Assembly: GCA_947074145.1 (NCBI GenBank)
Contig: CAMTOJ010000002.1
Location: 40,742 to 104,741, forward strand
Source: an uncultured Bacteroidales bacterium
GTDB lineage: Bacteria > Bacteroidota > Bacteroidia > Bacteroidales > JAUNSR01
DNA: 64,000 nt
Direction: 5' to 3'
Part shown: piece by piece, positions 1-59,169 of the stretch
Layout of the letters: each line of letters begins with the position of its first letter
How positions within the stretch are numbered: position 1 is the stretch's first letter
Notes under the pieces: model-generated
Databases searched by the model: none
What the model saw: the letters and a program-made list of their open reading frames with translations, nothing else
What the model was told of the DNA's origin: nothing
Program-made: the position numbers and the translations under genes

Positions 1-1
1 A

Positions 2-8330: not shown

Positions 8331-8355
8331 TAACACTATTCAAGAGTAAACTTAT

Positions 8356-10206: not shown

Positions 10207-10224
10207 CTATAATTAGAAATAATA

Positions 10225-12864: not shown

Positions 12865-12889
12865 TAAAAAATAAATTGACAATTTTATT

Positions 12890-14572: not shown

Positions 14573-14577
14573 TTAAG

Positions 14578-16269: not shown

Positions 16270-16331
16270 TGAATATAATCCTGATTATTGTATTAATCCG
16301 GGATTTTGATAAATCTTAATTAATAGACAAA

Positions 16332-16388
16332 AGAGATAACATCAGTTGAATTTCAACTATGTTATCTCTTGGTTTTTAAAGCAATAGA
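16332..16388 (+). terminator. Rho-independent terminator closing the SusC/D-LRR operon
   Basis: AGAGATAACAT ... ATGTTATCTCT perfect 11-bp stem followed by GGTTTTT. Confidence 0.8.
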
Positions 16389-16460
16389 TAAACATTATTT
16401 ATATAAACTAATAATATTTATCCGAATTATTCAATTTCATATTTTCAATAAAATAGCACA

Positions 16461-17504: not shown

Positions 17505-17575
17505 TTCTTATTCTACCATAAAATTTTAGATTTATCAATTACTTTTCATCAAATAATTAGATTATATAAAATAAT

Positions 17576-17613
17576 AAAACCCTTCCTCTTTCATATGAAA
17601 AAGGAAGGGTTTT
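17576..17613. terminator. Bidirectional terminator between convergent genes
   Basis: AAAA-CCCTTCCTCTTT / AAAAAGGAAGGG-TTTT stem with one mismatch, flanked by an A-run and a T-run. Confidence 0.8.
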
Positions 17614-17635
17614 ATTATTTTATTTTTTGATATGA

Positions 17636-23338: not shown

Positions 23339-25093
23339 ATGAAAAAGTCATTATTTTTTATTAGCTCAGCTTTTTTATTGGCTGCATTGACAAGTTCTTG
23401 CTCCGATGAAAATAAGGATCAGCTTGCAATGTTTGAGGATGATGCTTTTATTAATCTCTCTTTAAATATCTCTACCGGAGATATTAAGACTAAAGCGATG
23501 ATTGATGCTACAGATGACGGGACAGACGCAGAAGGAATTTGTTGGAACGAAGATTTGAAGAATCTCGAATCAACTTTCGATGCTTCTCAATATGAGGCAA
23601 AAATAACAATCAGATATCATGTCGATGCCAATGATCAAGACAAAGGCAATGATATTATTTTTGTTCCTATTAAAAATATTGTTTTAGAAGATGGTTCTCA
23701 GCCGGTTGCTGTAACTGATCAGTTTTCTTTGTTGAAACCTCTTAAAGATACTCGTCATGTTGTTGATGGTATCTATATAATCACTAAAAAGCAAGCCGGA
23801 GACGGAGAAGATTTTGTTCCTAAAGTTGTTTTCTCTTCAGTTGTTTCCGGAGCTAATTATGCTAATCATATTAGAAAAGATCATCAGATGCCAATAAGCC
23901 TATTTGTAGGAGATACAGATAGTTATGAAAATGTTGATGATATTAACTATGTAGTAATTAATGATAAAGTAAAAACTCCAATACCTGTGTCTGTTTTATG
24001 CGCAGTCAATGAGGAAGCTCCGAACTTTGGTTACTCTTTATGGTCTTTTAATTTTGTAAGAGTAGTTTGTATACCTTATTCCGTAAATGTCAAAACCAAT
24101 CCTTGTGACGAATATTCAAAAGATATTTATGGTATAACCGATCTTACTATTTCTCGTATATCTAAAACTGGATTATTAGAGGAAGGTAAAGAGTTTTCAT
24201 ATGAAATCTTTCATCATAGTTCAACTACAGAAGATGAAGTTGTGGGTAAAATTTGCTTCAATTATCAAAGTGATGAAGCAATAGATGATCAGATTTATGA
24301 TCTTAGTTTGACTATTAAATTTAAAAATGGAAGAACAGCAACGATATTTGGTCAAATTCCACTTGAAAATCTTTGGAATTATAAGAACAGCGGTTATTGG
24401 GTCGTTCCTAAAGGTTCAGATATAAATTCAACAGATGGTTATATTCACTTTGATCTCTTTAATATTGATATTACTAAATCTGGTATTATAAATAGTGAAT
24501 TTAAAGAGGAAGATGGTAAATGGATACTTAAAATTATAGAACCTTATTTATGTGAATCCGATTTTAGTTGTAACGAATCAAAAATTAAATTCCCTACGAA
24601 TTTGCCTAATGGAGTTGATAATTATGTAGAAACCAATTCTCCATTAACAGAATGTGATTGGATATTTGTTCGCTTTACACAAGGAATAAAAAGTCCAACA
24701 TTATATTCGTTTGACGGAGCACTTTATTCTCCTATTATTTATTTGAATAAGGGGGATATTGCAACATATGCAATAAAAACAGCTGTAAATTTTGGTGAAG
24801 GAATAGAAAAAGATTATTGTTTGAATAAATACTACGAAGTTGAACTTATACCTATTGATGTTAATTCATACAATACTATGACCCAATTTACAAAGCAAAC
24901 CAAAAATTTAGAAAATAAAGAAGTATGCCTATGTGCTCATGAACTATTATCAACAACTATAAGTTCATCTGCTGCTCCGGAATCAAATTATTATAGAGTT
25001 AAGTTTAATATTAAAACAAAGAATCCTGATGAATACGCAACAATTGTAACTGATTTTAGTTACACAGGCTTTGAAGAAAAAAAAGATCTATAA
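23339..25093 (+). CDS. Lipoprotein of unknown function, paralog 2 of a tandem pair
   Basis: 584 aa, lipobox 'LTSSCSDENKD'. N-terminal ~380 aa are collinear with paralog 1; the C-terminal ~200 aa are unrelated and Cys-rich. Confidence 0.8.
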   Translation: MKKSLFFISSAFLLAALTSSCSDENKDQLAMFEDDAFINLSLNISTGDIKTKAMIDATDDGTDAEGICWNEDLKNLESTFDASQYEAKITIRYHVDANDQDKGNDIIFVPIKNIVLEDGSQPVAVTDQFSLLKPLKDTRHVVDGIYIITKKQAGDGEDFVPKVVFSSVVSGANYANHIRKDHQMPISLFVGDTDSYENVDDINYVVINDKVKTPIPVSVLCAVNEEAPNFGYSLWSFNFVRVVCIPYSVNVKTNPCDEYSKDIYGITDLTISRISKTGLLEEGKEFSYEIFHHSSTTEDEVVGKICFNYQSDEAIDDQIYDLSLTIKFKNGRTATIFGQIPLENLWNYKNSGYWVVPKGSDINSTDGYIHFDLFNIDITKSGIINSEFKEEDGKWILKIIEPYLCESDFSCNESKIKFPTNLPNGVDNYVETNSPLTECDWIFVRFTQGIKSPTLYSFDGALYSPIIYLNKGDIATYAIKTAVNFGEGIEKDYCLNKYYEVELIPIDVNSYNTMTQFTKQTKNLENKEVCLCAHELLSTTISSSAAPESNYYRVKFNIKTKNPDEYATIVTDFSYTGFEEKKDL

Positions 25094-34852: not shown

Positions 34853-36808
34853 TTATCTCATAATCTTAATCACCTTACTTCCGTCAGGTGTATCAAGTTT
34901 GATCACATAAATACCTTTTCCTAAATGATTCAGATCAATTGAGGACTCAAATCCTGCAATATCTTGTTGATACACCATTTTTCCTGAAACTGCAAAAACA
35001 GAAACACGTCCTTTATTAACTGAGTCAAGATTAACATTCAGAGTTCCACTCATATTTATATAAGTAAGTTTATGTTCAAGCTGAATAACTCCGTTTATAG
35101 ACAATGATAAAGCTTTAACCTTCTGAATATACCACTGTTGATTTTTGCTTTGAGTAATTCTCTGATCATAAACAATAGCATTTGTTCCATTTGCAAACGA
35201 TCCCCCTGCATTATTTACAGAATATCCACTACCAACGTTAATTATTCCATACATATCACCGGTTCCAACCTCTTTGATTCTCCAAAGTTGTTTAGGATCA
35301 GAGCTGTCTGGAGTTTTCAGAGCCATAGGTTTATTCCATTCCGTTTCACTCATGGCAAGATTATATTCAAGATTAATGAACTGATATTGCCCTTCATTAA
35401 TTTCTGAAATCAACCAATTTTGAGATTCCTCATCATCAAGCGGATTCCAAAGATGTAGATTCATTGTCTGATCATTCACATCAAGTGCATTATTGGAATT
35501 GTTGTTCACAACCATATAAATGAAGTTTCCGGCCTCGAAAGGTTGACTCGGCAAAGATGATGTAAGACTTGGGAATGCCTGATTTAGAAAATCTACTCTA
35601 TTATCAATATATTCTCTTATATAATCAACATATTCAGCATGAGTAGAAAATAACAAAGGTTCATTATATACCTTTCGATTTATAACATTCCATTTTTTAT
35701 AATTCAACTCCTGAGAAGCCTGAATAAGATCTTCTGTTTCATCAATGAAATTTTGAATTTTTTCTTTTATACCACCTTTAACAAGAGCAGTCCATCTTTC
35801 ATCAACACTTTTTATAAACCATGGGTCTTCAAGTAAACGTGTAATCCAATTTCGAGGATTGAAAGCTGCATCTTTCATCAATTTTTTTGTGGTATCATAT
35901 ACACGATTATCATTATTGAAAGCGATATCATAATCCCACATAGGACCAAAATAAAATTTATCTTCTTCTCGTTTTTTATAAAGATAAGTGCTCCAAAAGC
36001 AATCCGGATTAGCAGTCAATTCACTTGCTATATACCAATTTATCAGTGATTCTTCATCAACCATAGATCTGTATCCAAGTTCCGGATCCTTGAAATCAGA
36101 AGAGAAAAGTTTGTTTTCAAATTCTTGGGTAAAATTGCTTATATAATTGAATTGAGCATCATTTATTTCATCATCAGCGGGATATTTAATAGTAACTTTA
36201 ATACCTTGATTAGTTGTGAACCATGATATTTCACTTGCTGCGAACCCATCAAGTTCTATTAGGTATCCTCCTTCTATATCAGGTTCTGAAACCATCGTAG
36301 GGTCTTGCTCTTCAACAGGCACTCGTTTTTTGTGTACTTCTACTTGATCTGTAACGAGATAATTTCCCTGATAAATATTGTTAAGATAAAAATCTACAAA
36401 TCGAAATTCCGGAGTAAATTCGAATTCAAGCATCTGACCAATCTGCAAAGCAATTGCATTTCTCATAAGTGATTTATCGGCATGATTAGCAAGAAATATC
36501 CATTTCTTAGCCTTAGCACTCATATCAATAAAATTACGTTTCTTGTTAAATTTTATTCTGTATGGTTTCTTCGCAAGATTCCATGTTGAGTTACCGCGAC
36601 CCTTAATTGTCATAGTGTCTTCAACAAGTTCCTCAGCTTCATTATTGCTAATTACTGAAAGAAAACCATTTATTTGAATATCCTTGTCTACTACAGACTG
36701 GTTATTTTCTGTTTTGATATATACGGTTGGAATATTGGTTACCTGTGTTTGAGCAGATAACTGTACAAATAGTAACGTACATATTAATGAAAGTAAAATG
36801 TTCTTCAT
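34853..36808 (-). CDS. Secreted CotH-kinase-family protein with ricin-B lectin domain and T9SS C-terminal sorting domain
   Basis: 651 aa. Signal peptide. CotH-like core ('KKPYRIKFNKK', 'LRNAIALQIG', 'YQGNYLVTDQVEV', 'GGYLIELD', 'GPMWDYDIAF'). Three QxW beta-trefoil repeats ('SQNWLI', 'KQLWRI', 'NQQWYI'). CTD 'VSVFAVSGKMVYQQ...LGKGIYVIKLDTPDGSKVIKIMR'. Confidence 0.8.
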   Translation of the reverse strand: MKNILLSLICTLLFVQLSAQTQVTNIPTVYIKTENNQSVVDKDIQINGFLSVISNNEAEELVEDTMTIKGRGNSTWNLAKKPYRIKFNKKRNFIDMSAKAKKWIFLANHADKSLMRNAIALQIGQMLEFEFTPEFRFVDFYLNNIYQGNYLVTDQVEVHKKRVPVEEQDPTMVSEPDIEGGYLIELDGFAASEISWFTTNQGIKVTIKYPADDEINDAQFNYISNFTQEFENKLFSSDFKDPELGYRSMVDEESLINWYIASELTANPDCFWSTYLYKKREEDKFYFGPMWDYDIAFNNDNRVYDTTKKLMKDAAFNPRNWITRLLEDPWFIKSVDERWTALVKGGIKEKIQNFIDETEDLIQASQELNYKKWNVINRKVYNEPLLFSTHAEYVDYIREYIDNRVDFLNQAFPSLTSSLPSQPFEAGNFIYMVVNNNSNNALDVNDQTMNLHLWNPLDDEESQNWLISEINEGQYQFINLEYNLAMSETEWNKPMALKTPDSSDPKQLWRIKEVGTGDMYGIINVGSGYSVNNAGGSFANGTNAIVYDQRITQSKNQQWYIQKVKALSLSINGVIQLEHKLTYINMSGTLNVNLDSVNKGRVSVFAVSGKMVYQQDIAGFESSIDLNHLGKGIYVIKLDTPDGSKVIKIMR

Positions 36809-38183: not shown

Positions 38184-38213
38184 TGTATTAAAATACAGAT
38201 AACAAGAAAACTG

Positions 38214-38254
38214 ATCCCATTATTGTACTAATTTCAATGATGGGATTTTTTTTA
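38214..38254 (+). terminator. Rho-independent terminator after purU
   Basis: ATCCCATTATTG ... CAATGATGGGAT stem (one mismatch) followed by a run of 8 T. Confidence 0.8.
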
Positions 38255-38330
38255 TTTTAAGATTAATTTGAACATATCTATTATTTCGCTAAATTAGTAA
38301 CGTTATAATAAACCTAAGAAAGAATTTACG

Positions 38331-39263
38331 ATGAAGCAATTACGCTATGTAATAGCAGGGCTTGGATTGAATCTCCATTCGAGAGATAATGAAAAACTAA
38401 AAAACTACTTAACGTCCTTTTCACCTTTTTGTGTTAATGAATTTTCAAAAGATACGATACATCTTTTTGACTTTTTTACAGGGCTTACTCTTGATGTAAA
38501 TGGCGAACCGATTCATTCATTTGACTGGGAGGGGATCAAGTGTGAAATATTTATGAATGATAATCATTATTTGGTGAAATTTTATCTTTCACAGGATGAA
38601 TATTATATAATAAAATCAGATAAACAGTGGAAAATAATAAATTCAAATATTCAGACAATAGATGAGAGATCGTCATTTTGTATAACTTTCTTTCTGATGT
38701 TTGCCTACTGTTTTGCATCCATACCTTATAATACTTTAGTAATACACGCTTCGGTTGTGATTCATAATGAAAAAGCGATGGTTTTTCAGGGTAAAAGTGG
38801 CACAGGGAAGAGCACGCACTCACAATTATGGCTAAAAAATGTAAAAGGAACGTATTTGCTAAATGATGATAATCCGGTGATAAGAATAGATGACAGCGGA
38901 ATTCTTTATGTCTATGGGTCACCCTGGAGCGGAAAAACTCCGTGTTATTTGAATAAAAAATTTGAAGTAGCAGCATTTGTTCGCTTGAGCCAGGCTAAAG
39001 AGAATAAATTGCAGAAATTATCACTTGGGAAATCCTTTGCATCACTTCTTCCTTCATGCAGTAACATGATATGGGATAAAAGAGTGCATGAGACGATATG
39101 TTCTACAATTTCTAAGGTTTGTATATATAATCGATGTTGGACACTTCAGTGTCTTGCTGATAAAGATGCAGTTATGAAATCTAAATCAATAATTGATCAA
39201 CTTGATGATATTGATAATGATGTAACAAATCAAAAAACAGAAATTGAATCTTTAGAGATCTAA
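38331..39263 (+). CDS. HPr-kinase-C-terminal-like P-loop protein (HprK-related kinase)
   Basis: 310 aa. 'LVIHASVVIHNEKAMVFQGKSGTGKSTHSQLW...LLNDDNPVIR...YVYGSPWSGK' matches the HprK/P catalytic-domain pattern. The ~130-aa N-terminal domain is unrecognised. Confidence 0.7.
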   Translation: MKQLRYVIAGLGLNLHSRDNEKLKNYLTSFSPFCVNEFSKDTIHLFDFFTGLTLDVNGEPIHSFDWEGIKCEIFMNDNHYLVKFYLSQDEYYIIKSDKQWKIINSNIQTIDERSSFCITFFLMFAYCFASIPYNTLVIHASVVIHNEKAMVFQGKSGTGKSTHSQLWLKNVKGTYLLNDDNPVIRIDDSGILYVYGSPWSGKTPCYLNKKFEVAAFVRLSQAKENKLQKLSLGKSFASLLPSCSNMIWDKRVHETICSTISKVCIYNRCWTLQCLADKDAVMKSKSIIDQLDDIDNDVTNQKTEIESLEI

Positions 39264-39272
39264 TTTTAATTT

Positions 39273-39767
39273 ATGCAGATAAAAAAGATCAATAATAATC
39301 TGTTTTTCTCAGAAGTAATCGAATTTTTATCTCAGGGAAAAGAGGTCAGGATAAGAGTGAGAGGTCAAAGTATGCTCCCTTTTCTTGATGAAAACAGAGA
39401 TGAAGTTATAATTTGCGGAGTAGATAAAGAAGCTATAAAAATCGGTACTATTGTACTTGCACATATCCAATTCCGTCAATATATAATGCATAGAGTAGTG
39501 GCTGTTGAAGGCGAAAATCTTGTATTAATGGGTGATGGTAATATTGGTAAAACCGAAAAATGTGTCATTTCAGAAGTAATAGCAATAGCAAAAAGAAGAA
39601 GCCGAAAAGGTAAGGAGATAGATTTAATATCATTAAAGTATAGAGTTTACGCCAAATTATGGTTCACATTGAGATTTATAAGAAAACCATTACTTGTTTC
39701 ATATAAGATATTTACACAAAGAGATTATCTTAAGAGGAAGTTACAATATAAAATGAATAAAATATGA
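39273..39767 (+). CDS. S24/S26-family (SipW-like, Ser-His) peptidase
   Basis: 164 aa. Nucleophile motif 'RGQSMLPFL', and 'YIMHRVVAVEGENLVLMGDGN' resembling the S26B 'THR' His motif. Hydrophobic C-terminal helix. Confidence 0.65.
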   Translation: MQIKKINNNLFFSEVIEFLSQGKEVRIRVRGQSMLPFLDENRDEVIICGVDKEAIKIGTIVLAHIQFRQYIMHRVVAVEGENLVLMGDGNIGKTEKCVISEVIAIAKRRSRKGKEIDLISLKYRVYAKLWFTLRFIRKPLLVSYKIFTQRDYLKRKLQYKMNKI

Positions 39768-40036
39768 CAAGGATAAAATCAGGATTCCGATTATGTGAAG
39801 TTGGAAATGAGTATATAATAGTTGCTCATGGATTGGAAAATATAAATTTCTCTAAGGTGATGAATCTAAACGAAATTGCCGCTTATTTATGGGAAAAGAT
39901 AGTTGATAAAGAATATTTTGATGAAACGATATTAACAGATCTAATACTTCAGGAATATGAAATTGATGAAGAAACGGCTCGAAAAGATGCTACATCTTTT
40001 ATCAATCAATTAAAGGAGCAAGAGCTGGCCGAATAA
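39764..40036 (+). CDS. PqqD-family protein (RiPP recognition element-like)
   Basis: 90 aa. 'FRLCEVGNEYIIV....FSKVMNLNEIAAYLWEKI.....ETILTDLILQEYEIDEETARKDATSFINQLKEQEL' fits the PqqD pattern. ATGA overlap with the upstream peptidase gene. Confidence 0.75.
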   Translation: MTRIKSGFRLCEVGNEYIIVAHGLENINFSKVMNLNEIAAYLWEKIVDKEYFDETILTDLILQEYEIDEETARKDATSFINQLKEQELAE

Positions 40037-40056
40037 CAAAGAATTTTGTTTTATAT

Positions 40057-41172
40057 ATGAAAAACAACACTGAGAAGATTTTATTTGAATTATTAAGAGC
40101 ATCGCTTTGGAATGCAGATATCAATCAGTCAATGTTTGAAACTATGACAGATGACGATTGGAGATCTGTATATATGATAGCCAAAAAACAAGCCTTATTA
40201 GGAGTTGTATATGATGGATTAATGAAATTGCCAAAGCAATTTTATCCATCAAGACTTATACTTATAAATTGGTTTGTAACGGTTGAAAAGATCTCGATGT
40301 CAAATGAGAGAATGAATGAGGCGCTACAACAATTCTCCCAAGAGACATCTATTCTTGGTATAGATTTTATTCTTATAAAAGGGCAGGGGTTGGCCAACCT
40401 TTATCCCAATAAACTTAGTCGTCAATGTGGAGATATCGATATAGTGGTGAAAAATAGAAGTCACTATGATAAACTCTATGAATATTTATGTGATAAGACG
40501 GGAACTCGTCCTAAATTTAGTGTCAAACATGTCAATTTCGAATATTTGGGAATGCATTTCGAAATACATCGTGAGATAATGAATCTACATAATCCATTCA
40601 GACGAAGGAAATTTGAAAATAAGATAACTAAACTTATAAATAGTGGAAAGTTGTCGTACTATCATATAAATGAAAGGAAGATATATCTTCTTCCTCATAA
40701 AGTGAATTCGGTTTATATATTGAAGCATGCTTTCGATCATCTGATAACATTCGGTATCGGATTAAGACAAATATGTGATTGGACACTATTTATGTCAATG
40801 TATAAAGATATATTAAATAAAGAGGAGGTAACTTCGTTATTAAAATTGTGTTCAATATATGATGCAGCAAATATGTTTGCATATATATCGGTCAATTATT
40901 TGGGTATGGACAAAAAAAATCTACCATTCGATTATATTGAGAACAAGGAGAGAGGGGAGTTTCTTTATCGTGATATAATGGAGGGTGGAAATTTCGGAAC
41001 TCATCGAAAAGGTTATAATGTAGATAAGAATCCGATATTAAGAAAACTAAAAACAGCGATATCAATTTTTAAACGAAGTTTGATATTTTTCCGGTTTAGC
41101 CCGAACGAATCATTTTGGTATCCATTTGATCAAATTTATCGTGTTTCCGCATCAATGATAAGAACGAAGTAA
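40057..41172 (+). CDS. Uncharacterised nucleotidyltransferase (NTP_transf_5-like)
   Basis: 371 aa. 'ILIKGQGLANLYPN...RQCGDIDIVV' gives the G-x(n)-D-x-D nucleotidyltransferase motif, with a long helical C-terminal part. Confidence 0.65.
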   Translation: MKNNTEKILFELLRASLWNADINQSMFETMTDDDWRSVYMIAKKQALLGVVYDGLMKLPKQFYPSRLILINWFVTVEKISMSNERMNEALQQFSQETSILGIDFILIKGQGLANLYPNKLSRQCGDIDIVVKNRSHYDKLYEYLCDKTGTRPKFSVKHVNFEYLGMHFEIHREIMNLHNPFRRRKFENKITKLINSGKLSYYHINERKIYLLPHKVNSVYILKHAFDHLITFGIGLRQICDWTLFMSMYKDILNKEEVTSLLKLCSIYDAANMFAYISVNYLGMDKKNLPFDYIENKERGEFLYRDIMEGGNFGTHRKGYNVDKNPILRKLKTAISIFKRSLIFFRFSPNESFWYPFDQIYRVSASMIRTK

Positions 41173-41244
41173 AAACTAATCTAAATACAACAACTATTTA
41201 TCGACCGGACTTCTTCGAAGAACGGAATTATCAACAATCAATAA

Positions 41245-42888
41245 ATGAAATCATATATCAGATTTTTTAAAAATATGTTTTCTGCCATAAATGGCGCTAT
41301 GTCCGGTTTCAGATTGAAGTTGGTAGGGATGTGGTTGCTTGATATAATAACAATTATTAGCTCTATTGCATTTGTATTTTATTCTAAGAGAGTTATTGAT
41401 ATAGCAACATCTGCATATGAAGGTGATCTGTTTGAATATGCCATAATTCTTGTTGTTCTTCTTCTTTTTCAGATATCAGGTCAAGCCTATAATAAATGGT
41501 ATTCATTAAGAATTTACTCTAAAATAGTCAATAGGTTGCGATCTGAATATTTTGACAGGATATTAAGAAGTAAATGGAATGAGGCTGAGAAATTCAAAAC
41601 CGGAGATCTTCAGATGCGTATGATGAGTGATATTTCAGATTTCGTCACACTCATGGTTTATACTTTACCAGGAATGTTGAGGTCTTTCTTTGAGTTGACA
41701 GGCGCATTTATCTTTTTATATATTCTCAATCCTATGCTTGCTGTTAGTATCTGTGTAATAACACCTTGCTTTTTGATATTCAGCAAATCATATTTCAAAA
41801 AAATGAGAGAGATCACTCATAATATCAAGGAGTATGATGGAAGGATAAGTACTATGTTGAATGAGAGTTTTTTGAATAGAAATGTTTTGAAGGTTTTCGA
41901 TTATCAGGATATTCAGAGTGAAAACTATAAACTGCTTCAGGAAAGAAAACTCGGATTTATATATAAGAAGAATAACTATACAACCTACTCCAATATGCTG
42001 GTTTCCTTATGTTTTGCCATAGGTTATATTACGGCATTTCTTTGGGGGACTTGGCAAATTAGTGCAGGAATTATCACGTTTGGAACAATGACAGCCTTTC
42101 TTCAACTTGCTAATAGAATACAAAGTCCGGCTCTTGATCTTCTTGGAACAATCCCTCCTTTAATCAATATGAAAACATCGATGGAGCGACTTGACGATAT
42201 AAAAGGGTTAACAGTTGAGCATAATAAGAATAAAGATCTCCTTGGGGATTCATTGTTTGTAGATATAGACAAAGTCAGTTTTGGATATGAAAACGATGAA
42301 AAGGTATTGCAAGATGTTTCCATGGAGTTTAAATCGGGTTCTATTTCTCTTATTATGGGACCTTCAGGAGCCGGTAAGACCACTTTGATAAGATTATTAT
42401 TGGGATTGATTGAGCCTGAAAAAGGTAGCGTCTCAATAAAGACAAAAGATGGCTCTAAAGTAAAAGTATCAGAAAACACACGAAATAATTTTGTGTATGT
42501 ACCTCAGGGTAATACGCTTTTCGGAACTACAATTAGGGAGAATATATTGCTTGGAAATCCTGCTGCTACAGAAAAAGAGATAGAAAGAGCTATATATATG
42601 TCTGCATCAGAGTTTATATATAGTTTGCCAAAAGGTCTGGATACGGAACTTTCAGAGAATGGCTCAGGTGTTTCACAAGGTCAATCTCAAAGAATAGCAA
42701 TTGCAAGAGCTTTGCTTCGCCCCGGTTCCATATTGCTACTTGATGAGGCAACCTCTGCATTAGATGAAACAACAGAAAATCTTATACTTGAACGAATGAA
42801 GGAGGATAATGATAAGAAAACAATAATCATGATATCACATAATAATAAAATAAAAGAGATTAGTGATTGTGTCTTTAATATAAGATGA
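41245..42888 (+). CDS. ABC exporter, fused permease-ATPase (no peptidase domain)
   Basis: 547 aa. N-terminal TMD, Walker A 'GPSGAGKTT', degenerate signature 'VSQGQSQRIAIARA', Walker B 'ILLLDEATSALD'. Confidence 0.9.
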   Translation: MKSYIRFFKNMFSAINGAMSGFRLKLVGMWLLDIITIISSIAFVFYSKRVIDIATSAYEGDLFEYAIILVVLLLFQISGQAYNKWYSLRIYSKIVNRLRSEYFDRILRSKWNEAEKFKTGDLQMRMMSDISDFVTLMVYTLPGMLRSFFELTGAFIFLYILNPMLAVSICVITPCFLIFSKSYFKKMREITHNIKEYDGRISTMLNESFLNRNVLKVFDYQDIQSENYKLLQERKLGFIYKKNNYTTYSNMLVSLCFAIGYITAFLWGTWQISAGIITFGTMTAFLQLANRIQSPALDLLGTIPPLINMKTSMERLDDIKGLTVEHNKNKDLLGDSLFVDIDKVSFGYENDEKVLQDVSMEFKSGSISLIMGPSGAGKTTLIRLLLGLIEPEKGSVSIKTKDGSKVKVSENTRNNFVYVPQGNTLFGTTIRENILLGNPAATEKEIERAIYMSASEFIYSLPKGLDTELSENGSGVSQGQSQRIAIARALLRPGSILLLDEATSALDETTENLILERMKEDNDKKTIIMISHNNKIKEISDCVFNIR

Positions 42889-42901
42889 AATAGATAAAAC
42901 A

Positions 42902-42939
42902 AAAACGCACCAAAAGAGATATTCTTCTTGGTGCGTTTT
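42902..42939. terminator. Bidirectional terminator (ABC exporter / pepD)
   Basis: AAAACGCACCA ... TGGTGCGTTTT perfect 11-bp stem. Confidence 0.8.
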
Positions 42940-42969
42940 CGTTTTATTATATTGCTATATATTAGAGAA

Positions 42970-48088: not shown

Positions 48089-50578
48089 ATGAAAAACAAA
48101 CAACTACTATTATTAGTAACTGCTATGATAGCAGTTCCGCTATATGCCGATGTTTTACCGTATCTGCCGGTTAAAGTAAATATTGGGGAGGAGATAAAAA
48201 AGGAAGATTTTAAAACTTTAAACTTTGAATCAGATTTTACCCTTGAATTTGAAGCTTCGCAGGGAGATATCGTGAAATTTTGTAACAGTACTTTTAACGG
48301 TATAGACTATGAAGTAAAGCACAACGGTAAATATCGTATAGCAAATAAAGCCGGGATACTTTATATTTATTGTAATAATAAATATTTGGAACAAAGAAGT
48401 ATTTACAATATTGAATATCCTTTAATTTATGATCTCGAAGATAATAAGGAAGCACAAGAGGGGATTTATTCGCCATTGAATTTATTTAAAAATCCGGGAT
48501 TTGAAGATATTGTAGATGGAGGTAAAGAGGAGAAAAACAGATATATTCCAGCCGCTTGGGAGAGTGAGAATTTCTATACTTCTACAAATTCTCGTGTAAA
48601 TACGGATTACGGTGATAAGTTGACCGGTATAGAGGGAAGAGGTGCATTAATGCATCATGGATATTCTGCCGGAAACGGAATGTTTTTTTATCAAAAAATT
48701 GATAATGAAAAATTGGAGAATAATAGTAAGTATCTTGTTTGTTTCAGAACATGGTCACATTCCAATGCTTACGGTAAATATACAGCTAAAGTAGGATATG
48801 AGGTTAATAGTGCCAATCTTATAGAGTATTCTTGGACTCAGACATCAACAGCGTATAATTGTAATGATCTGACTTTTGAATTTACATATCTTGAGAAAGA
48901 TGATAATAAAGATTTATATTTCACCATTATAAGAAATGGAGAAACCATAGGACATTTTGATAGAATGTTAATGGTTAAAAGGCGTTCTGATGCACCTGAA
49001 GTATCAGGATTATATTCTGAAAATATCACGAATGTCAAATTTGATGAGAGCGGAGCTTATGCTCCTGTTATGGATGTTTTAGAAGATGATTACTATGATA
49101 TGACTTCATTCATTAATGATGCTACGGTTTCAAAAGCTTCGGCATGGTCGGGTTCTACTGTTAAAATAGAGTCAGGAAAAGCGTATTCGGGAGCTCCTGA
49201 TGGCTCTTATCTTAATATGTGGAGTGGCAGTGTATTTACATATGATATCTATCAAAATATATCAGATTTACCATCCGGTGTTTATACACTGACAGCAGTT
49301 GCAAGATCTAATGATTCAGAATTTTATGTGTATTCTGAATCTGACTCAAATGAAAATAAAGTATCTATACCTAATAATGTGGAAAATGATACCGAATTAG
49401 GATTGGGATGGGAAAGAGTGAAAATTGAAAATATAATAGTTAAAAATGGATTATTAAAAATTGGTGCATCCGGTACTGCTTCTAAAGGAAATGTATGGCT
49501 GAGTGTTGACGATTTTCATTTATATTATCATGGAGTGGATGTATCGATTCTTAAAGAAACTCTATTAGAGTTGATCGAAGATTCTAAAAAGTTTGATCTT
49601 TCATCTGTGCCGACAGGAATTGCAAATGAACTTACTGATGCGATAAAAATAGCTGAAGAGGTTAGTAATAATGAAGAAGCGATTCGTTTGGCTGAGGAAA
49701 ATTTACTTGAGAAATTCACAACAGCTAATTCATATGTAGTTTTCTATGCAGATCTTAATAATTCTATTAAGTCATTCTCGTATTTGAATAATGAATGGTT
49801 TACAGATATAATAAATGATGCACAGATTGTGTATAGCCAAGAATCTCCAACACTTGAAGAGATAAAAGATGCACAAAATAATTTGCTTGATAATATTATC
49901 AAGATTATGGATAAATTCTCAGGATATAACTATACAGGGCAAATTTCAAATCCTGATATTAACTCAGAGAATGGTTGGATTTTTGAAAATAAAAACGGAT
50001 CGCATAAGACAATATCCGGTGAACACTATACATATGATGATCTTAATAGATATCTGGATTCATGGAATGGAACGCCGGGAGCTTTAGATTATAATGCATA
50101 TCAGAATATTACAAATCTTAAAAACGGATTATATATATTGTCTGCTGCAGCAAGAGCCTCAGGTAATGGTGCATTTATTTATGCTAACGATATGAAACGA
50201 GAGATATTTAATAATGGTTCATCAGATGGAGAACTGGACAAAGGATGGAATATTGTTCGCGTTCCTGTTGTGGTTACTGATGGAAATCTGAAAATCGGTG
50301 TAAGAACTATGGTTGATATGTGGACCGGTACATGGCTCAGTGCAGATGATTTTACTTTGATAAATTATCCTTATGATAATAATTATTTGAGTATTGAAGA
50401 TGCGGAAAAAGAAGATATCCGAATTTATACATTAGCAAGAAAAATATATGTGGAAGGAATTTCTGATTATGAAATAATTAATGTGAGTGGAATGAAGTTG
50501 CCGAAGAATTCAGAATTCGAAAAAGGTGTATATTATATTATTACCGAAAATAGAAGTTTCTCAATTTTTGTTAATTAA
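48089..50578 (+). CDS. Secreted multi-domain protein: three CBM-like jelly-roll modules, helical linkers, probable T9SS C-terminal domain
   Basis: 829 aa with signal peptide. CBM4/9-like start 'NLFKNPGFED'. Two clearly related internal modules, each ending '[VA]DDF.L' ('GVYTLTAVARSN...LKIGASG...WLSVDDFHLYY' and 'GLYILSAAARAS...LKIGVRT...WLSADDFTLINY'). Tail 'YEIINVSGMKL....EKGVYYIITENRSFSIFVN'. Confidence 0.65.
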   Translation: MKNKQLLLLVTAMIAVPLYADVLPYLPVKVNIGEEIKKEDFKTLNFESDFTLEFEASQGDIVKFCNSTFNGIDYEVKHNGKYRIANKAGILYIYCNNKYLEQRSIYNIEYPLIYDLEDNKEAQEGIYSPLNLFKNPGFEDIVDGGKEEKNRYIPAAWESENFYTSTNSRVNTDYGDKLTGIEGRGALMHHGYSAGNGMFFYQKIDNEKLENNSKYLVCFRTWSHSNAYGKYTAKVGYEVNSANLIEYSWTQTSTAYNCNDLTFEFTYLEKDDNKDLYFTIIRNGETIGHFDRMLMVKRRSDAPEVSGLYSENITNVKFDESGAYAPVMDVLEDDYYDMTSFINDATVSKASAWSGSTVKIESGKAYSGAPDGSYLNMWSGSVFTYDIYQNISDLPSGVYTLTAVARSNDSEFYVYSESDSNENKVSIPNNVENDTELGLGWERVKIENIIVKNGLLKIGASGTASKGNVWLSVDDFHLYYHGVDVSILKETLLELIEDSKKFDLSSVPTGIANELTDAIKIAEEVSNNEEAIRLAEENLLEKFTTANSYVVFYADLNNSIKSFSYLNNEWFTDIINDAQIVYSQESPTLEEIKDAQNNLLDNIIKIMDKFSGYNYTGQISNPDINSENGWIFENKNGSHKTISGEHYTYDDLNRYLDSWNGTPGALDYNAYQNITNLKNGLYILSAAARASGNGAFIYANDMKREIFNNGSSDGELDKGWNIVRVPVVVTDGNLKIGVRTMVDMWTGTWLSADDFTLINYPYDNNYLSIEDAEKEDIRIYTLARKIYVEGISDYEIINVSGMKLPKNSEFEKGVYYIITENRSFSIFVN

Positions 50579-53063: not shown

Positions 53064-53996
53064 ATGAAAAGAATCTTAATAACAGGAGGGGCTGGTTTTA
53101 TAGGCTCTCATCTATGTGAAAGATTATTGAATGAAGGTAATGATATAATATGCCTAGACAATTATTTTACAGGAAATAAAGATAATATACGTCATTTGCT
53201 GGATAATCATAACTTTGAACTTGTAAGACATGACATAATTACACCGTATTATGCTGAGGTTGATGAAATTTACAACCTGGCATGTCCGGCTTCACCTCCT
53301 CACTATCAATACAATCCTATTAAAACAATGAAGACCTCAATCTATGGAGCGATGAATACATTGGGATTGGCCAAAAGAACTAATGCAAAGATTTTACAAG
53401 CATCAACAAGTGAAGTTTATGGAGATCCTATCATTCATCCTCAGGTAGAGTCTTATTGGGGAAATGTTAATCCGATAGGTATAAGATCTTGTTATGATGA
53501 AGGAAAAAGAGCCTCAGAAACACTTTTTATGGATTATCACAGACAAAATGGAGTGAAAATCAAAATTATACGCATTTTCAATACTTATGGTCCAAGAATG
53601 AATCCAAACGATGGGAGAGTAGTTAGTAATTTCATTGTGCAGGCATTGAAGAATGAAGATATAACCATTTTCGGAACAGGAGAACAAACCAGAAGTTTCC
53701 AGTATGTAGATGATTTAATTAATGGAATGACACGAATGATGCAGAGTGAAGATTCTTTTATCGGTCCTGTCAATCTTGGTAATCCCAACGAGTTTACTAT
53801 GTTGGAATTAGCACAAAAAATAATCGAGATTACCAATTCAAAATCGAAGTTGATTTTCTTACCATTGCCAGGAGATGATCCAAAACAAAGACAACCAGAT
53901 ATTACCTTAGCAAAGAATAAACTTGATTGGAGTCCTAAAATTCAACTACAAGATGGATTAAAAAGAACTATAGAATATTTTGATTCAATTATATAA
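53064..53996 (+). CDS. UDP-glucuronate decarboxylase (UDP-xylose synthase), SDR family
   Basis: 310 aa. '[18 protein letters not shown]', '[10 protein letters not shown]', '[10 protein letters not shown]', '[10 protein letters not shown]', 'DGRVVSNFI' closely follow the UXS pattern. Confidence 0.9.
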
Positions 53997-54008
53997 ACCT
54001 TAATTAAG

Positions 54009-55139
54009 ATGGAGTATAAAGCTTCGGATTTTAAAATCTTAGTAGTTGATGATATCCCGGCCAATATTTTATTATTAAAGATTATATTAGAAAAGGAAGG
54101 GTATAATGTTGATACTACAGATAAAGGAAATGACGTTTATAAAATAGCTTTGAATTCCAAACCGGACTTAATATTATTAGATGTAATGATGCCCGATATG
54201 AGCGGGTATGAAGTTGCCGATCAGCTTAAAGCTGATTCTCAGACTGAAGATATTAGTATAATTTTTATTACAGCACTGACAGGAAGTAAGAATATTATAA
54301 ACGGATTTCAACATGGAGGAAACGATTATGTTTCAAAGCCATTTAATAAAGATGAATTATTGATAAAAATAAAGCATCAACTTTCGTTAACTAAAGCAAA
54401 AAGAATAATAGAAGAAGAGAATGTCAAGCTGCAGAATACTATAAAAATGAGAGATACATTATATTCGGTAGTTGCACATGACTTACGTTCTCCATTGGGA
54501 TCTCTTAAAATGACACTAAATATGCTTACAATGCTTCTGCCTAAGGATTTGATAGGCGAGGAGATGTCGGATATATTAAGTGATGCAAATAAGACGACAG
54601 AAGATTTGTTTGGTTTATTGGATAATTTACTTAAATGGACCAAGAGTTTGACAGGTCGTTTAAATGTCGCATTTAAGGACAATGATATAGTCCCGGTGGC
54701 TCTTGGAATCAAGCAGATATTTGATATTTCTGCAAAACAAAAGGGTTTGGAAATAAATGTAATAACCCCGGATTCTGTAGTTGCTCATATGGATATCGAT
54801 ATGATTAATACTGTACTTAGAAATCTTGTAAGTAATGCAATAAAATATAGTTCAAAAGATACTTCTATCGATATAACTATAACAGAAAATAAAGACAAGA
54901 TAATAGTTGGTGTTAAGGATTCTGGTATCGGAATGTCGCAGGATGTAAAAAATAAATTACTTAATGAGGTTTCGATAACAACCTTTGGAACTCAAAACGA
55001 GGAGGGTTCAGGCTTGGGGTTGCTTTTGTGTCGAGATTTTATTAATAAAAATAATGGCCGTTTTTGGTTTGAATCAGAACAAAACAAAGGTTCGGAGTTC
55101 TTTTTTGAACTGAAAAAATCACCTGTTAATATAGACTGA
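54009..55139 (+). CDS. Soluble hybrid receiver-histidine kinase (REC-HisKA-HATPase, no sensor or TM domain)
   Basis: 376 aa. REC 'ILVVDDIPAN...LILLDVMMPDMSG...YVSKPF', H-box 'VVAHDLRSPL', N-box 'LRNLVSNAIKYS', G-boxes 'DSGIGMS' and 'GSGLGL'. Confidence 0.9.
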   Translation: MEYKASDFKILVVDDIPANILLLKIILEKEGYNVDTTDKGNDVYKIALNSKPDLILLDVMMPDMSGYEVADQLKADSQTEDISIIFITALTGSKNIINGFQHGGNDYVSKPFNKDELLIKIKHQLSLTKAKRIIEEENVKLQNTIKMRDTLYSVVAHDLRSPLGSLKMTLNMLTMLLPKDLIGEEMSDILSDANKTTEDLFGLLDNLLKWTKSLTGRLNVAFKDNDIVPVALGIKQIFDISAKQKGLEINVITPDSVVAHMDIDMINTVLRNLVSNAIKYSSKDTSIDITITENKDKIIVGVKDSGIGMSQDVKNKLLNEVSITTFGTQNEEGSGLGLLLCRDFINKNNGRFWFESEQNKGSEFFFELKKSPVNID

Positions 55140-55272
55140 AACATATTAACAGAGTTAAATTAATACATTGATAAACAGAATTGAATTTATCTTTGTATCT
55201 TATTTTCTAGTAATAGAAATTGATGTTAGTAAACTAAAAATTATTTTAAAACCCTATACTAATTATTTTATT

Positions 55273-55647
55273 ATGCCAATTGAGAAGAAAAAAATTTTAG
55301 TGATAGATGATAAAGAAACGATTGCAAAGATTATAATAATTTATATGCAACAAGATTATGATATCACATGGTTTGATAATGGTGAAAAGGGTTATGAGTG
55401 GATCCAAAATGGAAATACACCAGATCTTATTATATCAGACATAAAAATGCCGGTGATGAGAGGGGATGAGTTCCTCAGAAAGATGAAAAATCATGATTTA
55501 TTCAAATATATACCTATTGTAATGTTATCGAGTGAAGATAGTACATCCGAAAGGGTTAAACTATTGTCAGAAGGAGCAGAAGATTATATAGTAAAACCTT
55601 TTAATCCGTTAGAGTTAAAAATAAGAATTAAAAAGATCTTAGAATAA
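55273..55647 (+). CDS. Single-domain response regulator (receiver only)
   Basis: 'KILVIDDKETI...DLIISDIKMPVMRGDEF...IVMLSSE...YIVKPF'. I prefer the start at MPIEKKK (55273). The listed GTG-type extension from 55168 is hydrophobic, low-complexity and intergenic-looking. Confidence 0.85.
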   Translation: MPIEKKKILVIDDKETIAKIIIIYMQQDYDITWFDNGEKGYEWIQNGNTPDLIISDIKMPVMRGDEFLRKMKNHDLFKYIPIVMLSSEDSTSERVKLLSEGAEDYIVKPFNPLELKIRIKKILE

Positions 55648-56810
55648 TGTCTTCAATATTTTACATAGGAAACAAAGAATCTTATATAAATCATTTTAAA
55701 AATATATTAAACGATAAGATATACATCAATCCTGATTATACAGATAAAAAAATATTTAATAAATCGGATAAAGAGAATTATATAAGTTTTCTTGAGATAG
55801 ATAAGAGTGATGATATTCTAGCAAAAATAACCTTTTTAAAAGAATCGTATCCTAAAATAAAAATAGTAGCAGTATCTCATTGTTTTAATAAAGAGTTAAG
55901 TCTAAGCTTATTAAAAGCTGGAGTTTGTGATTATGTTTCTCCGGATGTAAAAAAAGAAGAACTGGTATTACTTATTGAAGAGTTAAAAAATGGATTGCAG
56001 AAATCTCAAGATAAGAGTAATGATTTAAAGACATTTAAACTTCCAATATGGAAAAGAATATTTGATATATTGTTTTCTATTGTTTCCATTTTAGTTTTAT
56101 CTCCGATTTTCATATTAACGGCCCTTGCCATAGGTATTGAGAGTAAAGGAAAAATTATATATACATCAAAGAGAGTAGGTAGTAATTACAAGGTTTTTGG
56201 ATTTTTGAAATTTCGTTCCATGTATTTAGATGCTGATAAAAGAATAAATGAGTTTTCGTCATTGAATCAATATCAGCCTGAAGAGGCAGAGGTAAATATT
56301 TCAAATATTGATATCGAAGCAGTATTATCAGGAAAAGTATCAATTGAAGATCTGAATATTAATACAAAATCTATTCTGATAACTGATGATGATATGATTG
56401 AGGAATCTCAATTTATACAAAACAAAAGAATGCAACAGAACAATAGTTTTGTGAAATTAGAGAATGATCCACGTATTACTAAGGTTGGCAAGATTATAAG
56501 AAAATTTAGTATTGATGAGTTACCCCAGTTGTTTAATATTCTAAAAGGCGATATGTCTGTTGTTGGTAATAGACCATTGCCTTTATATGAAGCTGAGTTG
56601 CTTACAAAGGATGAATATATAGATCGATTTATGGCACCATCCGGTCTTACCGGATTGTGGCAGGTTGAAAAAAGAGGTTCAACCGGACGAATGTCAGCAG
56701 AAGAGAGAAAAATGCTGGATATAAAATATGCGCATGAATTTTCTTTTTGGTATGATATTAAACTTATCCTCAAGACATTTACTGCTTTCGTTCAAAAAGA
56801 AAATGTTTAG
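55647..56810 (+). CDS. Priming sugar-phosphate transferase (Bac_transf / WbaP-EpsL type) with N-terminal degenerate receiver-like domain
   Basis: 387 aa. C-terminal 'KRIFDILFSIVSILVLSPIF', 'GFLKFRSM', 'DPRITKVGKIIRKFSIDELPQLFNILKGDMSVVGNRP', 'GLTGLWQV'. The N-terminal ~115 aa have a receiver-like beta-alpha layout but lack the DD pair and the Lys. The start overlaps the RR stop (TAATG). Confidence 0.85.
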   Translation: MSSIFYIGNKESYINHFKNILNDKIYINPDYTDKKIFNKSDKENYISFLEIDKSDDILAKITFLKESYPKIKIVAVSHCFNKELSLSLLKAGVCDYVSPDVKKEELVLLIEELKNGLQKSQDKSNDLKTFKLPIWKRIFDILFSIVSILVLSPIFILTALAIGIESKGKIIYTSKRVGSNYKVFGFLKFRSMYLDADKRINEFSSLNQYQPEEAEVNISNIDIEAVLSGKVSIEDLNINTKSILITDDDMIEESQFIQNKRMQQNNSFVKLENDPRITKVGKIIRKFSIDELPQLFNILKGDMSVVGNRPLPLYEAELLTKDEYIDRFMAPSGLTGLWQVEKRGSTGRMSAEERKMLDIKYAHEFSFWYDIKLILKTFTAFVQKENV

Positions 56811-56841
56811 ATTTTAGAACAATATAATCGTTTGCATTAAT

Positions 56842-57957
56842 ATGAAAAGTGATGAAAACAGGTTTGGTAAAACTCTTGCAATAAAAGGTTTTATAGACTT
56901 AATTTTTAGTTTAATTTCTTTATTAATCATTGTTATTACTATTATCGGCTCTTTGGGATCTATATTAAATCCTACGACAAATAAACTTTCTTATTTGTTT
57001 TCATTGATAATGCCGATACTTTTTTTTATTAATTTTATATTATTGATTTATCGTTTTGGTCGACAAAAGTTTAATAACAAATTGACCTATATTCATATAA
57101 TTCTTTTACTATTAATTGGAAAAGATTTAATCAATTTACCTTTTTCTGGATCTAAAGAAATTGAGGAAGAGAAAGGATTATCTATATTTTCATATAATGT
57201 CAGAAGTTTTAATTATTACAATAAGGAGCCATTATCAATTCTTGGAGTTATTAATGAAGTGAATGAAAAATCTCCGGATATAGTGTGTTTACAGGAATAT
57301 CTTGAATTTAATGACACAACGAAAATAAATTTTCACAAAAGAATAATGACTACTTATCCATATAAATTTTATGATATTAAGGGTCATAATGCTCAAGCAT
57401 CCGGAGGATTGATCTTATATAGTAAATATCCCATAATAGATGGAGGGGTATTGGAATATGAAAATTCAACAATTGCAATTTTCACTGATATTAAATACAA
57501 AACAGACACATTAAGAGTTATTAATACTCATCTGCAAAGTACGAAGTTCAATCAGACTAGTCTGAATTATCTAAAATCAGGACGATCTTTAGATAATAAA
57601 AATGACAGAAAGTATTTAAATAATATATTTTCAGAAATATATTCAAGTGCGGGGTTGAGAGTAAAGCAAGTTGAGTTGATAAATAAAAATGTGGAATATT
57701 CAGAATATCCAACAATAATATGTGGGGATTTTAATGAAAATAATTTCTCTTATATATATAATGAAATAACCAAAAAAACAAAGGATGCATATAAAGAGGT
57801 AGGTAAAGGCTATGTATCAACCTATAAAGGTCTATATAACCTGTTTCGCATAGATCATATCTTTTATACCAATCATATACAAGGTATAAAATATAAATCG
57901 CCATCATTGCCATATTCTGACCATAATCCGGTTTTGTTTAATTTTTTAATAAAATAG
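56842..57957 (+). CDS. Membrane-anchored endonuclease/exonuclease/phosphatase (EEP) family protein
   Basis: 371 aa. Three N-terminal TM helices, then EEP motifs 'LSIFSYNVRSF', 'PDIVCLQE', 'VINTHLQS', 'ICGDFNE', 'IDHIF', 'SDHNPV'. Confidence 0.8.
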   Translation: MKSDENRFGKTLAIKGFIDLIFSLISLLIIVITIIGSLGSILNPTTNKLSYLFSLIMPILFFINFILLIYRFGRQKFNNKLTYIHIILLLLIGKDLINLPFSGSKEIEEEKGLSIFSYNVRSFNYYNKEPLSILGVINEVNEKSPDIVCLQEYLEFNDTTKINFHKRIMTTYPYKFYDIKGHNAQASGGLILYSKYPIIDGGVLEYENSTIAIFTDIKYKTDTLRVINTHLQSTKFNQTSLNYLKSGRSLDNKNDRKYLNNIFSEIYSSAGLRVKQVELINKNVEYSEYPTIICGDFNENNFSYIYNEITKKTKDAYKEVGKGYVSTYKGLYNLFRIDHIFYTNHIQGIKYKSPSLPYSDHNPVLFNFLIK

Positions 57958-57964
57958 TTCCTTT

Positions 57965-59146: not shown

Positions 59147-59169
59147 TTCAAGTAAAAGAAACAATATAA

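Follow-up and report, generated by a model that had tools for sequence, protein, structure and literature searches.

The operon and its products

We examined a 64,000-nucleotide (64-kb) stretch of contig CAMTOJ010000002.1 from an uncultured Bacteroidales bacterium, hereafter the window, and in particular an operon of five co-directional genes within it. These genes encode a P-loop kinase-like protein, a Ser-His peptidase, a recognition element of the kind found in pathways for peptides that are made on ribosomes and post-translationally modified (RiPPs), a nucleotidyltransferase-fold enzyme, and an ABC exporter, and we refer to them in this order as K, S, Q, N, and T (Table 1). All five open reading frames (ORFs) are intact and lie where an earlier, sequence-only reading of this DNA had placed them. 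They are separated, according to the ORF list, by 9, -4, 20, and 72 nt, and the overlap of S and Q is an ATGA at 39764-39767. The motifs quoted in that reading are likewise all present, namely GKSGTGKST (residue 154 of K), GQSMLP (residue 31 of S), IMHRVV (residue 71 of S), and GDIDIVV (residue 125 of N).

The operon had also been described as bounded by terminators at both ends, and explicit folding supports this. The upstream region (38205-38262) folds at -17.7 kcal/mol (z -4.65), with none of 200 shuffled sequences as stable, and for the downstream region (42893-42948) the folding energies are -25.5 kcal/mol (z -7.9) for the + strand and -29.1 kcal/mol (z -9.2) for the - strand. A pattern scanner for promoters and terminators called neither boundary hairpin, the upstream one probably having been missed owing to its 9-nt loop, and promoter-like sites were not enriched. 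An Rfam scan of positions 36.5-45.5 kb gave no match at E <= 0.1, indicating that no riboswitch or leader RNA lies there.

Table 1. Genes and boundary elements of the five-gene operon, with positions in the window.
Feature	Position	Strand	Description
K	38331-39263	+	310 aa; P-loop kinase, HprK/PEPCK fold, ScmC-like subfamily
S	39273-39767	+	164 aa; soluble archaeal/SipW-type clan SF Ser-His peptidase
Q	39764-40036	+	90 aa; discrete PqqD-type RiPP recognition element (RRE)
N	40057-41172	+	371 aa; NTP_transf_5 nucleotidyltransferase-fold enzyme
T	41245-42888	+	547 aa; MsbA-type half-size ABC exporter
5' hairpin followed by U8	38214-38254	+	Intrinsic terminator of the upstream purU-like gene; 5' operon boundary
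Bidirectional hairpin terminator	42902-42939	both strands	Common to the convergent M20 dipeptidase gene; 3' operon boundary

Gene sets of this composition are known from Bacillota. In May 2026, Popov et al. described in Nature Communications a peptide class named linear polyphosphorylated peptides (LPP), an example being the cluster lppA-K-B-S-D-N of Paenibacillus alginolyticus DSM5050 (PMC13381572). Its parts are an archaeal-type peptidase resembling signal peptidase I (LppS), a discrete RRE (LppB), an HprK-like kinase (LppK), an NTP_transf_5 protein (LppN), and an MsbA-like exporter (LppD), and its precursors, encoded by one to three genes, are 35-200 aa long with the leader YxxPxVLxHQxIxFETxxS (PMC13381572). 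In a Bacillus subtilis host, LppK puts one to four phosphates on Ser3 of the core, and leader removal by LppS depends on LppB and on residues S29, H68, and D93 of LppS (PMC13381572). RRE-guided phosphorylation, cleavage, and export, the mechanism proposed in the sequence-only reading, has thus been shown experimentally for the five-function set of P. alginolyticus, and the label "uncharacterised" that this reading gave to the kind of system has been overtaken by that publication.

The window operon has the same five core functions as LPP, which also has no cyclase, and the LPP domain models (PqqD, NTP_transf_5, TIGR02228, and TIGR02203) are the best-scoring models on the window proteins. Because these functions, matched by the models that define LPP, occur together in one terminator-bounded operon, we think it likely that the operon serves to mature and export a leader-guided, linear, phosphorylated ribosomal peptide of the LPP type, the precursor being encoded outside the 64-kb window.

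The matches of Q, N, and T to PqqD, NTP_transf_5, ABC_membrane, and ABC_tran all exceed the curated cut-offs. Q matches PqqD (PF05402) at 3.8e-14, with 53 bits against a cut-off of 23.4, and lasso_PqqD_Bac at 2e-8; among PDB sequences it matches a lasso PqqD chaperone (9x90), TbiB1, and TfuB1, and BLASTP aligns it with LppB at 6e-5. Its assignment as a PqqD-type RRE, analogous to LppB and to the B1 proteins of lasso peptide clusters, is firm. N covers 247 of the 249 profile positions of NTP_transf_5 (PF14907) at 3.3e-33 and is firmly a member of that family, and we regard it as the analogue of LppN and PsmN. Its DxD motif at residues 127-129, within GDIDIVV, corresponds to D134/D136 of PsmN, which PsmN needs for attaching one or two hexoses at the phosphorylated Ser of pseudomycoidin (PMC6993621). 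T matches ABC_membrane (5e-33, residues 31-292) and ABC_tran (5e-29, residues 355-504) and has no C39 peptidase domain; its best NCBIfam model is that of MsbA (TIGR02203, 2e-68), yet the score stays under the equivalog cut-off. T is firmly an exporter, MsbA-like, and the counterpart of LppD.

Single models match S weakly, with Peptidase_S24 at 0.0086 and the best NCBIfam model, sigpep_I_arch (TIGR02228), at 2e-6. A profile of the S family matches SEC11C and SEC11A in the PDB at 3.5e-4, and hhalign aligns this family with LppS (WP_029196374.1) at a probability of 97.7% and an E-value of 2.4e-12, with Ser33 and His73 of S in register with S29 and H68 of LppS. Ser33, His73, Asp88, and Glu95 are invariant in the alignment of S with its relatives. 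Judged by these alignments, the homology of S with LppS is firm, and S is predicted to be the leader peptidase of the operon, analogous to LppS. A structural model of S, with a predicted local distance difference test (pLDDT) score of 81, resembles the LexA/UmuD and SpsB signal-peptidase folds and lacks an N-terminal membrane anchor, having instead a helix at residues 8-20; in LppS, the N-terminal helix contacts the RRE-leader complex (PMC13381572). SipW/Sec11-type signal peptidases share with S the Ser-His catalysis and boxes B, D, and E (GQSMLPF, MHRV, and GDGN), whereas S is anchorless, cytoplasmic, and coupled genetically to an RRE and not to the Sec pathway. The suggestion that a signal-peptidase-like enzyme takes the protease role is therefore sustained, in the form of a dedicated Ser-His peptidase homologous to LppS and ATGA-coupled to the RRE.

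The profile scores of K are weak: 6e-8 for HprK_rel_A (TIGR04352; 32.1 bits against a cut-off of 200), 1.7e-4 for HprK_rel_B, and 0.033 for ScmC (TIGR04249; 13.5 bits against a cut-off of 125). Among 16 homologues of K, 14 match HprK_rel_A (E <= 0.01), 13 match ScmC, 13 match PEPCK, and three match HPr(Ser) kinase, and the best HprK_rel_A E-value of the 16 is that of the window K itself. Because a K profile searched against PDB sequences gave only marginal PEPCK and HprK matches (E 0.012-1), a search by fold was needed. The AlphaFold model of K (pLDDT 93.7, predicted template modelling score 0.90) has 49 Foldseek matches in the PDB at E <= 1e-3, every one of them a PEPCK or an HPr kinase/phosphatase. 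The modelled structure is clearly of the HprK/PEPCK kinase fold, and K is a predicted peptide Ser kinase, analogous to LppK, PadeK, and PsmK. Of the gene identities first proposed, those of the PqqD protein, the NTP_transf_5 protein, the ABC exporter, and the Ser-His peptidase are thus firm, and that of the HprK-like kinase is borne out by fold and weak by profile. The motifs GKSGTGKSTH, NDDNP, and PWSGKT are invariant in 41 K homologues. The K family has more than 7999 members, mostly in PF27840 ("ScmC" in newer Pfam releases), and where these carry a name it is "hypothetical", with one exception; a literature search on HPr-rel-A, HprK-related kinases, and PF14907 found nothing relevant.

Conservation of the gene set and a family of candidate precursors

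At least 559 species genomes encode a relative of S, according to a genome scan with the S alignment, and an exhaustive search with a hidden Markov model (HMM) of S found 255 cluster representatives under 1e-30. For analysis of the loci, we took the best 80 of the S scan together with four metagenome contigs and scored the window's five proteins against their ORFs. The 80 loci are almost all from Bacteroidales, including Bacteroides, Phocaeicola, Prevotella, Alloprevotella, Parabacteroides, Proteiniphilum, and Rikenellaceae, with several from Fibrobacter. One locus (L022, CAZQRG010000102.1) is binned as "Candidatus Saccharibacteria" and carries a typical Bacteroidales-type K-S-Q block; its assignment is probably a binning error of the metagenome-assembled genome.

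The five genes are conserved together, with K-S-Q contiguous in almost all loci and N and T recurrent, variable in place, and often unlinked. The architectures are KSQ, KSQT, KSQNT, KST, ST, NKSQT, and QNTKS, and the flanks are housekeeping genes that vary by lineage (murF, purH, rpoD, lepA, and ompA). The closest relatives, whose K proteins are 45-69% identical to that of the window, keep the full K-S-Q-N-T order. Three of them (L005, L093, and L094) also keep the upstream neighbours, purU and a gene for a CotH-ricin-T9SS protein, with miaA ahead of these in L093 and L094; L091 and L092 keep the downstream neighbours mgtE and rsmA, L091 together with an LPG-synthase-like gene and pepD. Outside these five genes, every recurring family is confined to 16 or fewer of 83 neighbourhoods. 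Directly upstream of K in 16 Prevotellaceae-type loci (L037 at 8566-8997 and 15 others) is a gene for a secreted protein of ~140 aa, which may represent lineage-specific synteny. The S domain also forms the C terminus of some proteins of 430-470 aa (P0015, P0032, P0039, P0040, P0050, and P0079), and fusion of K with S is the probable explanation, to which run-through ORFs in L019 and L048 also point. In other cases, S lies at the N terminus of longer proteins; listed alongside are P0035 (541 aa), P0074, and P0142.

The Asn-synthetase-like cyclase and the transglutaminase-like B2 protease of lasso peptide clusters had been reported missing from the operon, and broader searches agree. Pfam scans of 20 neighbouring ORFs in the window, which leave some small window ORFs unscanned, found no Asn_synthase and no transglutaminase domain, and neither an Asn_synthase nor a transglutaminase-like B2 protein was seen among the annotated neighbours of the related loci. 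The SGGxDS PP-loop of Asn-synthetase-type cyclases was absent from all ORFs of at least 250 aa in the window and in 94 related loci. Each of the three conditions under which the sequence-only reading would have failed, on profiles, on an adjoining lasso cyclase/B2 pair, and on joint conservation of the genes, thus turns out in its favour.

Clustering of small ORFs around the related cassettes revealed peptides of ~45 aa in Proteiniphilum-type loci, and iteration with an HMM extended these to 22 matches at E <= 0.02 in 20 loci, the peptides being 40-85 aa long. Two more Fibrobacter copies were spotted by eye (HMM E-values of 5-13 only). For peptides not in the model, several independent E-values were significant, at 9e-7 to 3e-4 in round one and 1e-8 and 2e-8 for new members in round two, in which four other matches were weak (0.002-0.014). 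Tyr and Pro of a YxxP motif are invariant in all 22 aligned peptides; the leader consensus is K-(K/E)-x-Y-x-x-P-x-h-E-h-h-E-h-x-x-E-x-x-h-L-x-[AS]-S, and a Ser follows the Tyr at a distance of ~20 residues in 14 of the 22. Beyond the leader, the sequence varies, is Gly/Asp/Asn-rich, and often has Trp or acidic residues at its end. The family has 534 database members, unnamed or "hypothetical" and with no Pfam domain, and a comparison of ten candidate precursors with Pfam and NCBIfam returned no family. The YxxP leader, the variable Gly/Asn/Asp-rich core, and the conserved Ser after the presumed junction are all reminiscent of LPP precursors, and from these sequence features we regard the YxxP peptides as candidate RiPP precursors for the related cassettes.

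Several peptide genes lie close to cassette genes, in varied arrangements. In a Fibrobacter locus (L038), 42 nt separate a peptide gene from N, which follows it; in L062, the peptide gene comes 79 nt behind T; in L069, one is on the strand opposite to K at a distance of 56 nt; and in L016, it directly follows Q in convergent orientation. A reverse look-up from three peptides found PqqD, NTP_transf_5, a ScmC-like kinase, Peptidase_S24, and an ABC exporter within 10 kb in all six loci, and a metagenome scan from the peptides gave one 2-kb contig, with a peptide and then a lipoprotein, which is too short to reveal the cassette. Two peptide genes with like leaders and different cores occur in L038 (6127-6288 and 7727-7876), in L069 (4157-4327 and 6103-6324), and in L056 (9742-9906 and 13212-13385), as expected of multi-precursor RiPP loci, and each copy in L069 stands ahead of its own Fib_succ_major lipoprotein.

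The window itself had been described as having no precursor ORF in the operon or its flanks, and the same holds across the 64 kb. A full-length HMM of 16 peptides and a leader-only HMM of 22, run over all frames, returned only noise in the window (best E 2.2), and a YxxP regular expression over all its stop-to-stop frames found no precursor. No YxxP ORF lies in the gaps before three large window ORFs that have no Pfam match (21565, 23339, and 48089). The accompanying suggestion, that the substrate is encoded elsewhere, has been made concrete by the YxxP-leader peptides of related Bacteroidales and Fibrobacter loci, none of which has a counterpart in the window.

Relation to the linear polyphosphorylated peptides

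By analogy with LPP, we infer that the Bacteroidales proteins would bind, phosphorylate, and process a precursor peptide as follows. Q would bind a small precursor through the YxxP motif of its leader, and K would phosphorylate, perhaps repeatedly, a Ser near the junction of leader and core, the candidate phosphosite being the conserved Ser ~20 residues past the Tyr. S would cut off the leader, with the substrate presented by Q. N might then add a further group to the phosphate, which by analogy with PsmN could be a hexose or another nucleotide-activated moiety, and T would export the product. The modified Ser, the group added by N, the substrate in this organism, and its biological role are presumptive as well.

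We regard the window operon as a divergent Bacteroidales form of LPP that had not been reported before, and not as a new category of system. What it adds to the published account is a wider phyletic range, a distinct precursor family, the separation of genes, and a link between precursors and lipoproteins. LPP was called restricted to Bacillota, where it was found in 80 of 9173 Bacilli genomes and often in capsule loci (PMC13381572), whereas the present set occurs in Bacteroidales and Fibrobacter. A few Bacteroidota rows are contained in the supplementary table of that paper and not discussed there, among them Paludibacter, with S fused to an ABC transporter in a protein of 747 aa (PMC13381572). 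K lies in the ScmC-like (PF27840) branch of HprK-like proteins and is likened to the LPP kinase at the level of fold. The leader YxxPxhEhhEh...hLx[AS]S of the Bacteroidales and Fibrobacter peptides differs from that of LPP, and the in-cluster YxxP gene that LPP requires is missing from the window operon and present near homologous cassettes in at least 20 other loci. N and T are often unlinked from K-S-Q in the present set, and the candidate precursors of the relatives head lipoprotein operons.

Several points weigh against an LPP-type assignment. In pairwise BLAST, window S and Q share only 22-23% identity with LppS and LppB. They are nearer to uncharacterised Clostridia proteins, from Dehalobacter and Anaerocolumna/Lachnospiraceae, that form cluster 4 in the sequence similarity network (SSN) of the LPP study, in which LppS falls in cluster 1, with identities of 29-31% for S and 38-42% for Q. 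The SSN cluster 4 peptidases are the closest to S in that data set (Supplementary Data 1, PMC13381572) and resemble it over nearly the full length, including the GD..xxxE box and a basic amphipathic C-terminal helix; in the table, by which alone they were compared, no kinase, transferase, or exporter is listed for them. The catalytic D93 of LppS is not kept in S, where it pairs with Thr94, followed by Glu95, and going by the alignment, the invariant Glu95 or Asp88 would have to replace it. K falls far under the cut-off of every curated HprK-related model, and LppN had no detectable activity in the published system (PMC13381572). Neither the window nor the closest relatives' loci (L005 and L091-L094) yielded a precursor, so that the substrate is assigned to this organism by extrapolation. 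The three peptides of the reverse look-up represent one lineage, and permuting the positions of the peptides inside the fetched loci gave no significance (p ~0.11), an uninformative result given how short these loci are (many under 10 kb).

Cell-surface context and competing readings

The gene for a candidate precursor strongly tends to head an operon in which the next product is a large lipoprotein, and a signal sequence and a lipobox Cys are present in each of the 21 downstream proteins examined. An N-terminal domain common to many of these lipoproteins is tied to proteins bearing Mfa_like_1, a link that rests on precomputed matches in L085-L090 and on transitive BLAST. Their C-terminal modules vary and include Fib_succ_major, GLUG, Big_2, and CotH; a "fimbrillin-like" label from Pfam alone was dropped, as only these C-terminal modules were matched. 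RiPP-lipoprotein hybrids of Bacteroidota are the subject of an unrelated 2026 paper, which deals with MNIO enzymes.

Phocaeicola-type loci (L085-L090) have the five genes split into Q-N-K and S-T within one co-directional locus of ~18 kb (for example, L087 at 1-18491). The order there is family 4 glycosyltransferases (GT4s), Bac_transf, Q-N-K, Wza (Poly_export), the peptide, lipoproteins, OmpA, and S-T. These loci also hold a 783-aa protein without a Pfam match and two large lipoproteins, and a CotH domain is fused to a Mfa-like lipoprotein encoded between the precursor and S-T. These exopolysaccharide-type loci extend to another phylum the linkage to polysaccharide genes that was noted for Bacillota, and the genomic context as a whole suggests a role at the cell surface that involves lipoproteins or exopolysaccharide.

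The same context allows for a housekeeping function in the envelope, in which the cassette would modify and process a surface component, such as lipoproteins or the primer of an exopolysaccharide, and the YxxP ORFs would act as regulatory or leader ORFs in lipoprotein operons and not encode exported products. The cassette has housekeeping genes around it and, in the lineage of the window, is vertically stable, the peptides that were inspected closely precede a lipoprotein gene of the kind just described, the Phocaeicola-type genes are interleaved with GT4s, Bac_transf, Wza, and OmpA, and LPP clusters of Bacillota are likewise embedded in capsule loci (PMC13381572). We nevertheless consider such a function unlikely, since a discrete PqqD RRE and an invariant YxxP both typify leader-guided peptide modification, the substrate of the Bacillota homologues is the small peptide itself (PMC13381572), and some peptides have no lipoprotein after them, one Fibrobacter copy (L038) standing directly before N and that of L016 being convergent with K-S-Q. 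The difference from an LPP-type system lies mainly in the fate and role of the product and not in the enzymology.

A second alternative is that the operon has no cognate substrate in this organism, having been left by drift or serving in self-protection against, or export of, peptides made by neighbours. This would explain why no precursor was seen either within the 64 kb or in the loci fetched for the closest relatives. However, gene order and intactness are kept at 45-69% identity, which argues for purifying selection on all five genes, and elsewhere, precursors lie 6-7 kb or more from parts of the cassette, which is itself split. Distant precursors and split cassettes in other lineages make action in trans normal for the family, and an orphan operon seems to us improbable.

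Phosphorylated lasso peptide clusters, such as those of paeninodin (pade) and pseudomycoidin (psm), have in common with the window operon an HprK-like Ser kinase, a PqqD-type B1 protein, an NTP_transf_5 protein (PsmN), and an ABC exporter, and they share with the YxxP-leader peptides of related loci the recognition of a [Y/W]xxP leader. They differ in that no cyclase or B2 protease was detected here, a serine peptidase stands in for the cysteine peptidase, and a linear product is expected. That the operon is the relic of a paeninodin-type cluster, its tailoring genes surviving the loss of cyclase, B2 protease, and precursor, might be read from this shared accessory set and from the lasso B1 chaperones that are Q's best named matches, but this is hardly credible and is largely refuted by the intactness of the five ORFs, with catalytic motifs invariant across relatives, and by conservation of the set in hundreds of species, with no SGGxDS ORF in the window or 94 loci. 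The recurrent neighbours of 550-650 aa, moreover, are the ABC exporter or, in six loci, a lipoprotein family, the protease role is taken by the dedicated peptidase coupled to the RRE, and a link to lasso genes exists for only about a third of such peptidases in Bacillota, the set functioning alone (PMC13381572).

The best curated matches of K come from the HPr-rel-A system and from SynChlorMet (ScmC), in which HprK-like proteins accompany PqqD-family chaperones. We rejected membership in both, as the scores of K for TIGR04352 and TIGR04249 fall well below the cut-offs given above, and no radical SAM annotation of the ScmE/ScmF kind was seen in the neighbourhoods. An S26-type peptidase is not known to be part of either cassette.

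In the window, the second gene upstream of K (34853-36808, - strand) encodes a secreted protein of 651 aa that combines a CotH kinase domain (2e-47) with a ricin-type lectin domain and a C-terminal sorting domain of the type IX secretion system (T9SS), and a functional link of this protein to the operon is possible. Tandem paralogous lipoproteins of 536 and 584 aa, 43% identical and with the lipobox Cys at residue 21, are encoded at 21565-23175 and 23339-25093 (+ strand); they match nothing in Pfam, BLAST finds no similarity between them and the lipoproteins linked to precursors, and they are not preceded by a YxxP ORF. At 48089-50578 (+ strand) lies the gene for an 829-aa secreted protein without a Pfam match at E <= 1e-5, whose halves are internally similar, each with a motif of the form ...GLYILSAAARA... 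or ...GVYTLTAVARS..., and the next gene encodes DUF4114 and DUF4842. A polysaccharide-biosynthesis gene group at 53064-60591 (+ strand), 10 kb downstream of the operon and not adjacent to it, comprises an NAD epimerase/dehydratase, a hybrid response-regulator/histidine-kinase, Bac_transf, an EEP-family phosphatase, a family 2 glycosyltransferase, and a Wzx-type flippase; we claim no link between this group and the operon.

Taking the LPP-type reading further, the Bacteroidales and Fibrobacter cassettes may form an ancient, vertically stable LPP branch of their own, making phosphopeptides, perhaps glycosylated as well, that head lipoprotein operons and serve a surface structure (a Mfa-like lipoprotein, an exopolysaccharide, or a CotH module) and not as antibiotics. 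This is a tentative proposal that we hold with considerable doubt; if true, it would point to a widespread pathway of envelope maturation, so far unrecognised, in the bacteria that dominate the human and ruminant gut. The common occurrence of the gene set in gut Bacteroidales contradicts the stated restriction of LPP to Bacillota and brings the class to bacteria that are genetically tractable and ecologically dominant in the gut. The associations with lipoproteins and exopolysaccharide provide testable hypotheses on the purpose of the peptides. For annotation, the operon could give a pathway context to thousands of "hypothetical proteins", including PF27840 kinase-like proteins, soluble S26-like peptidases, and small YxxP ORFs.

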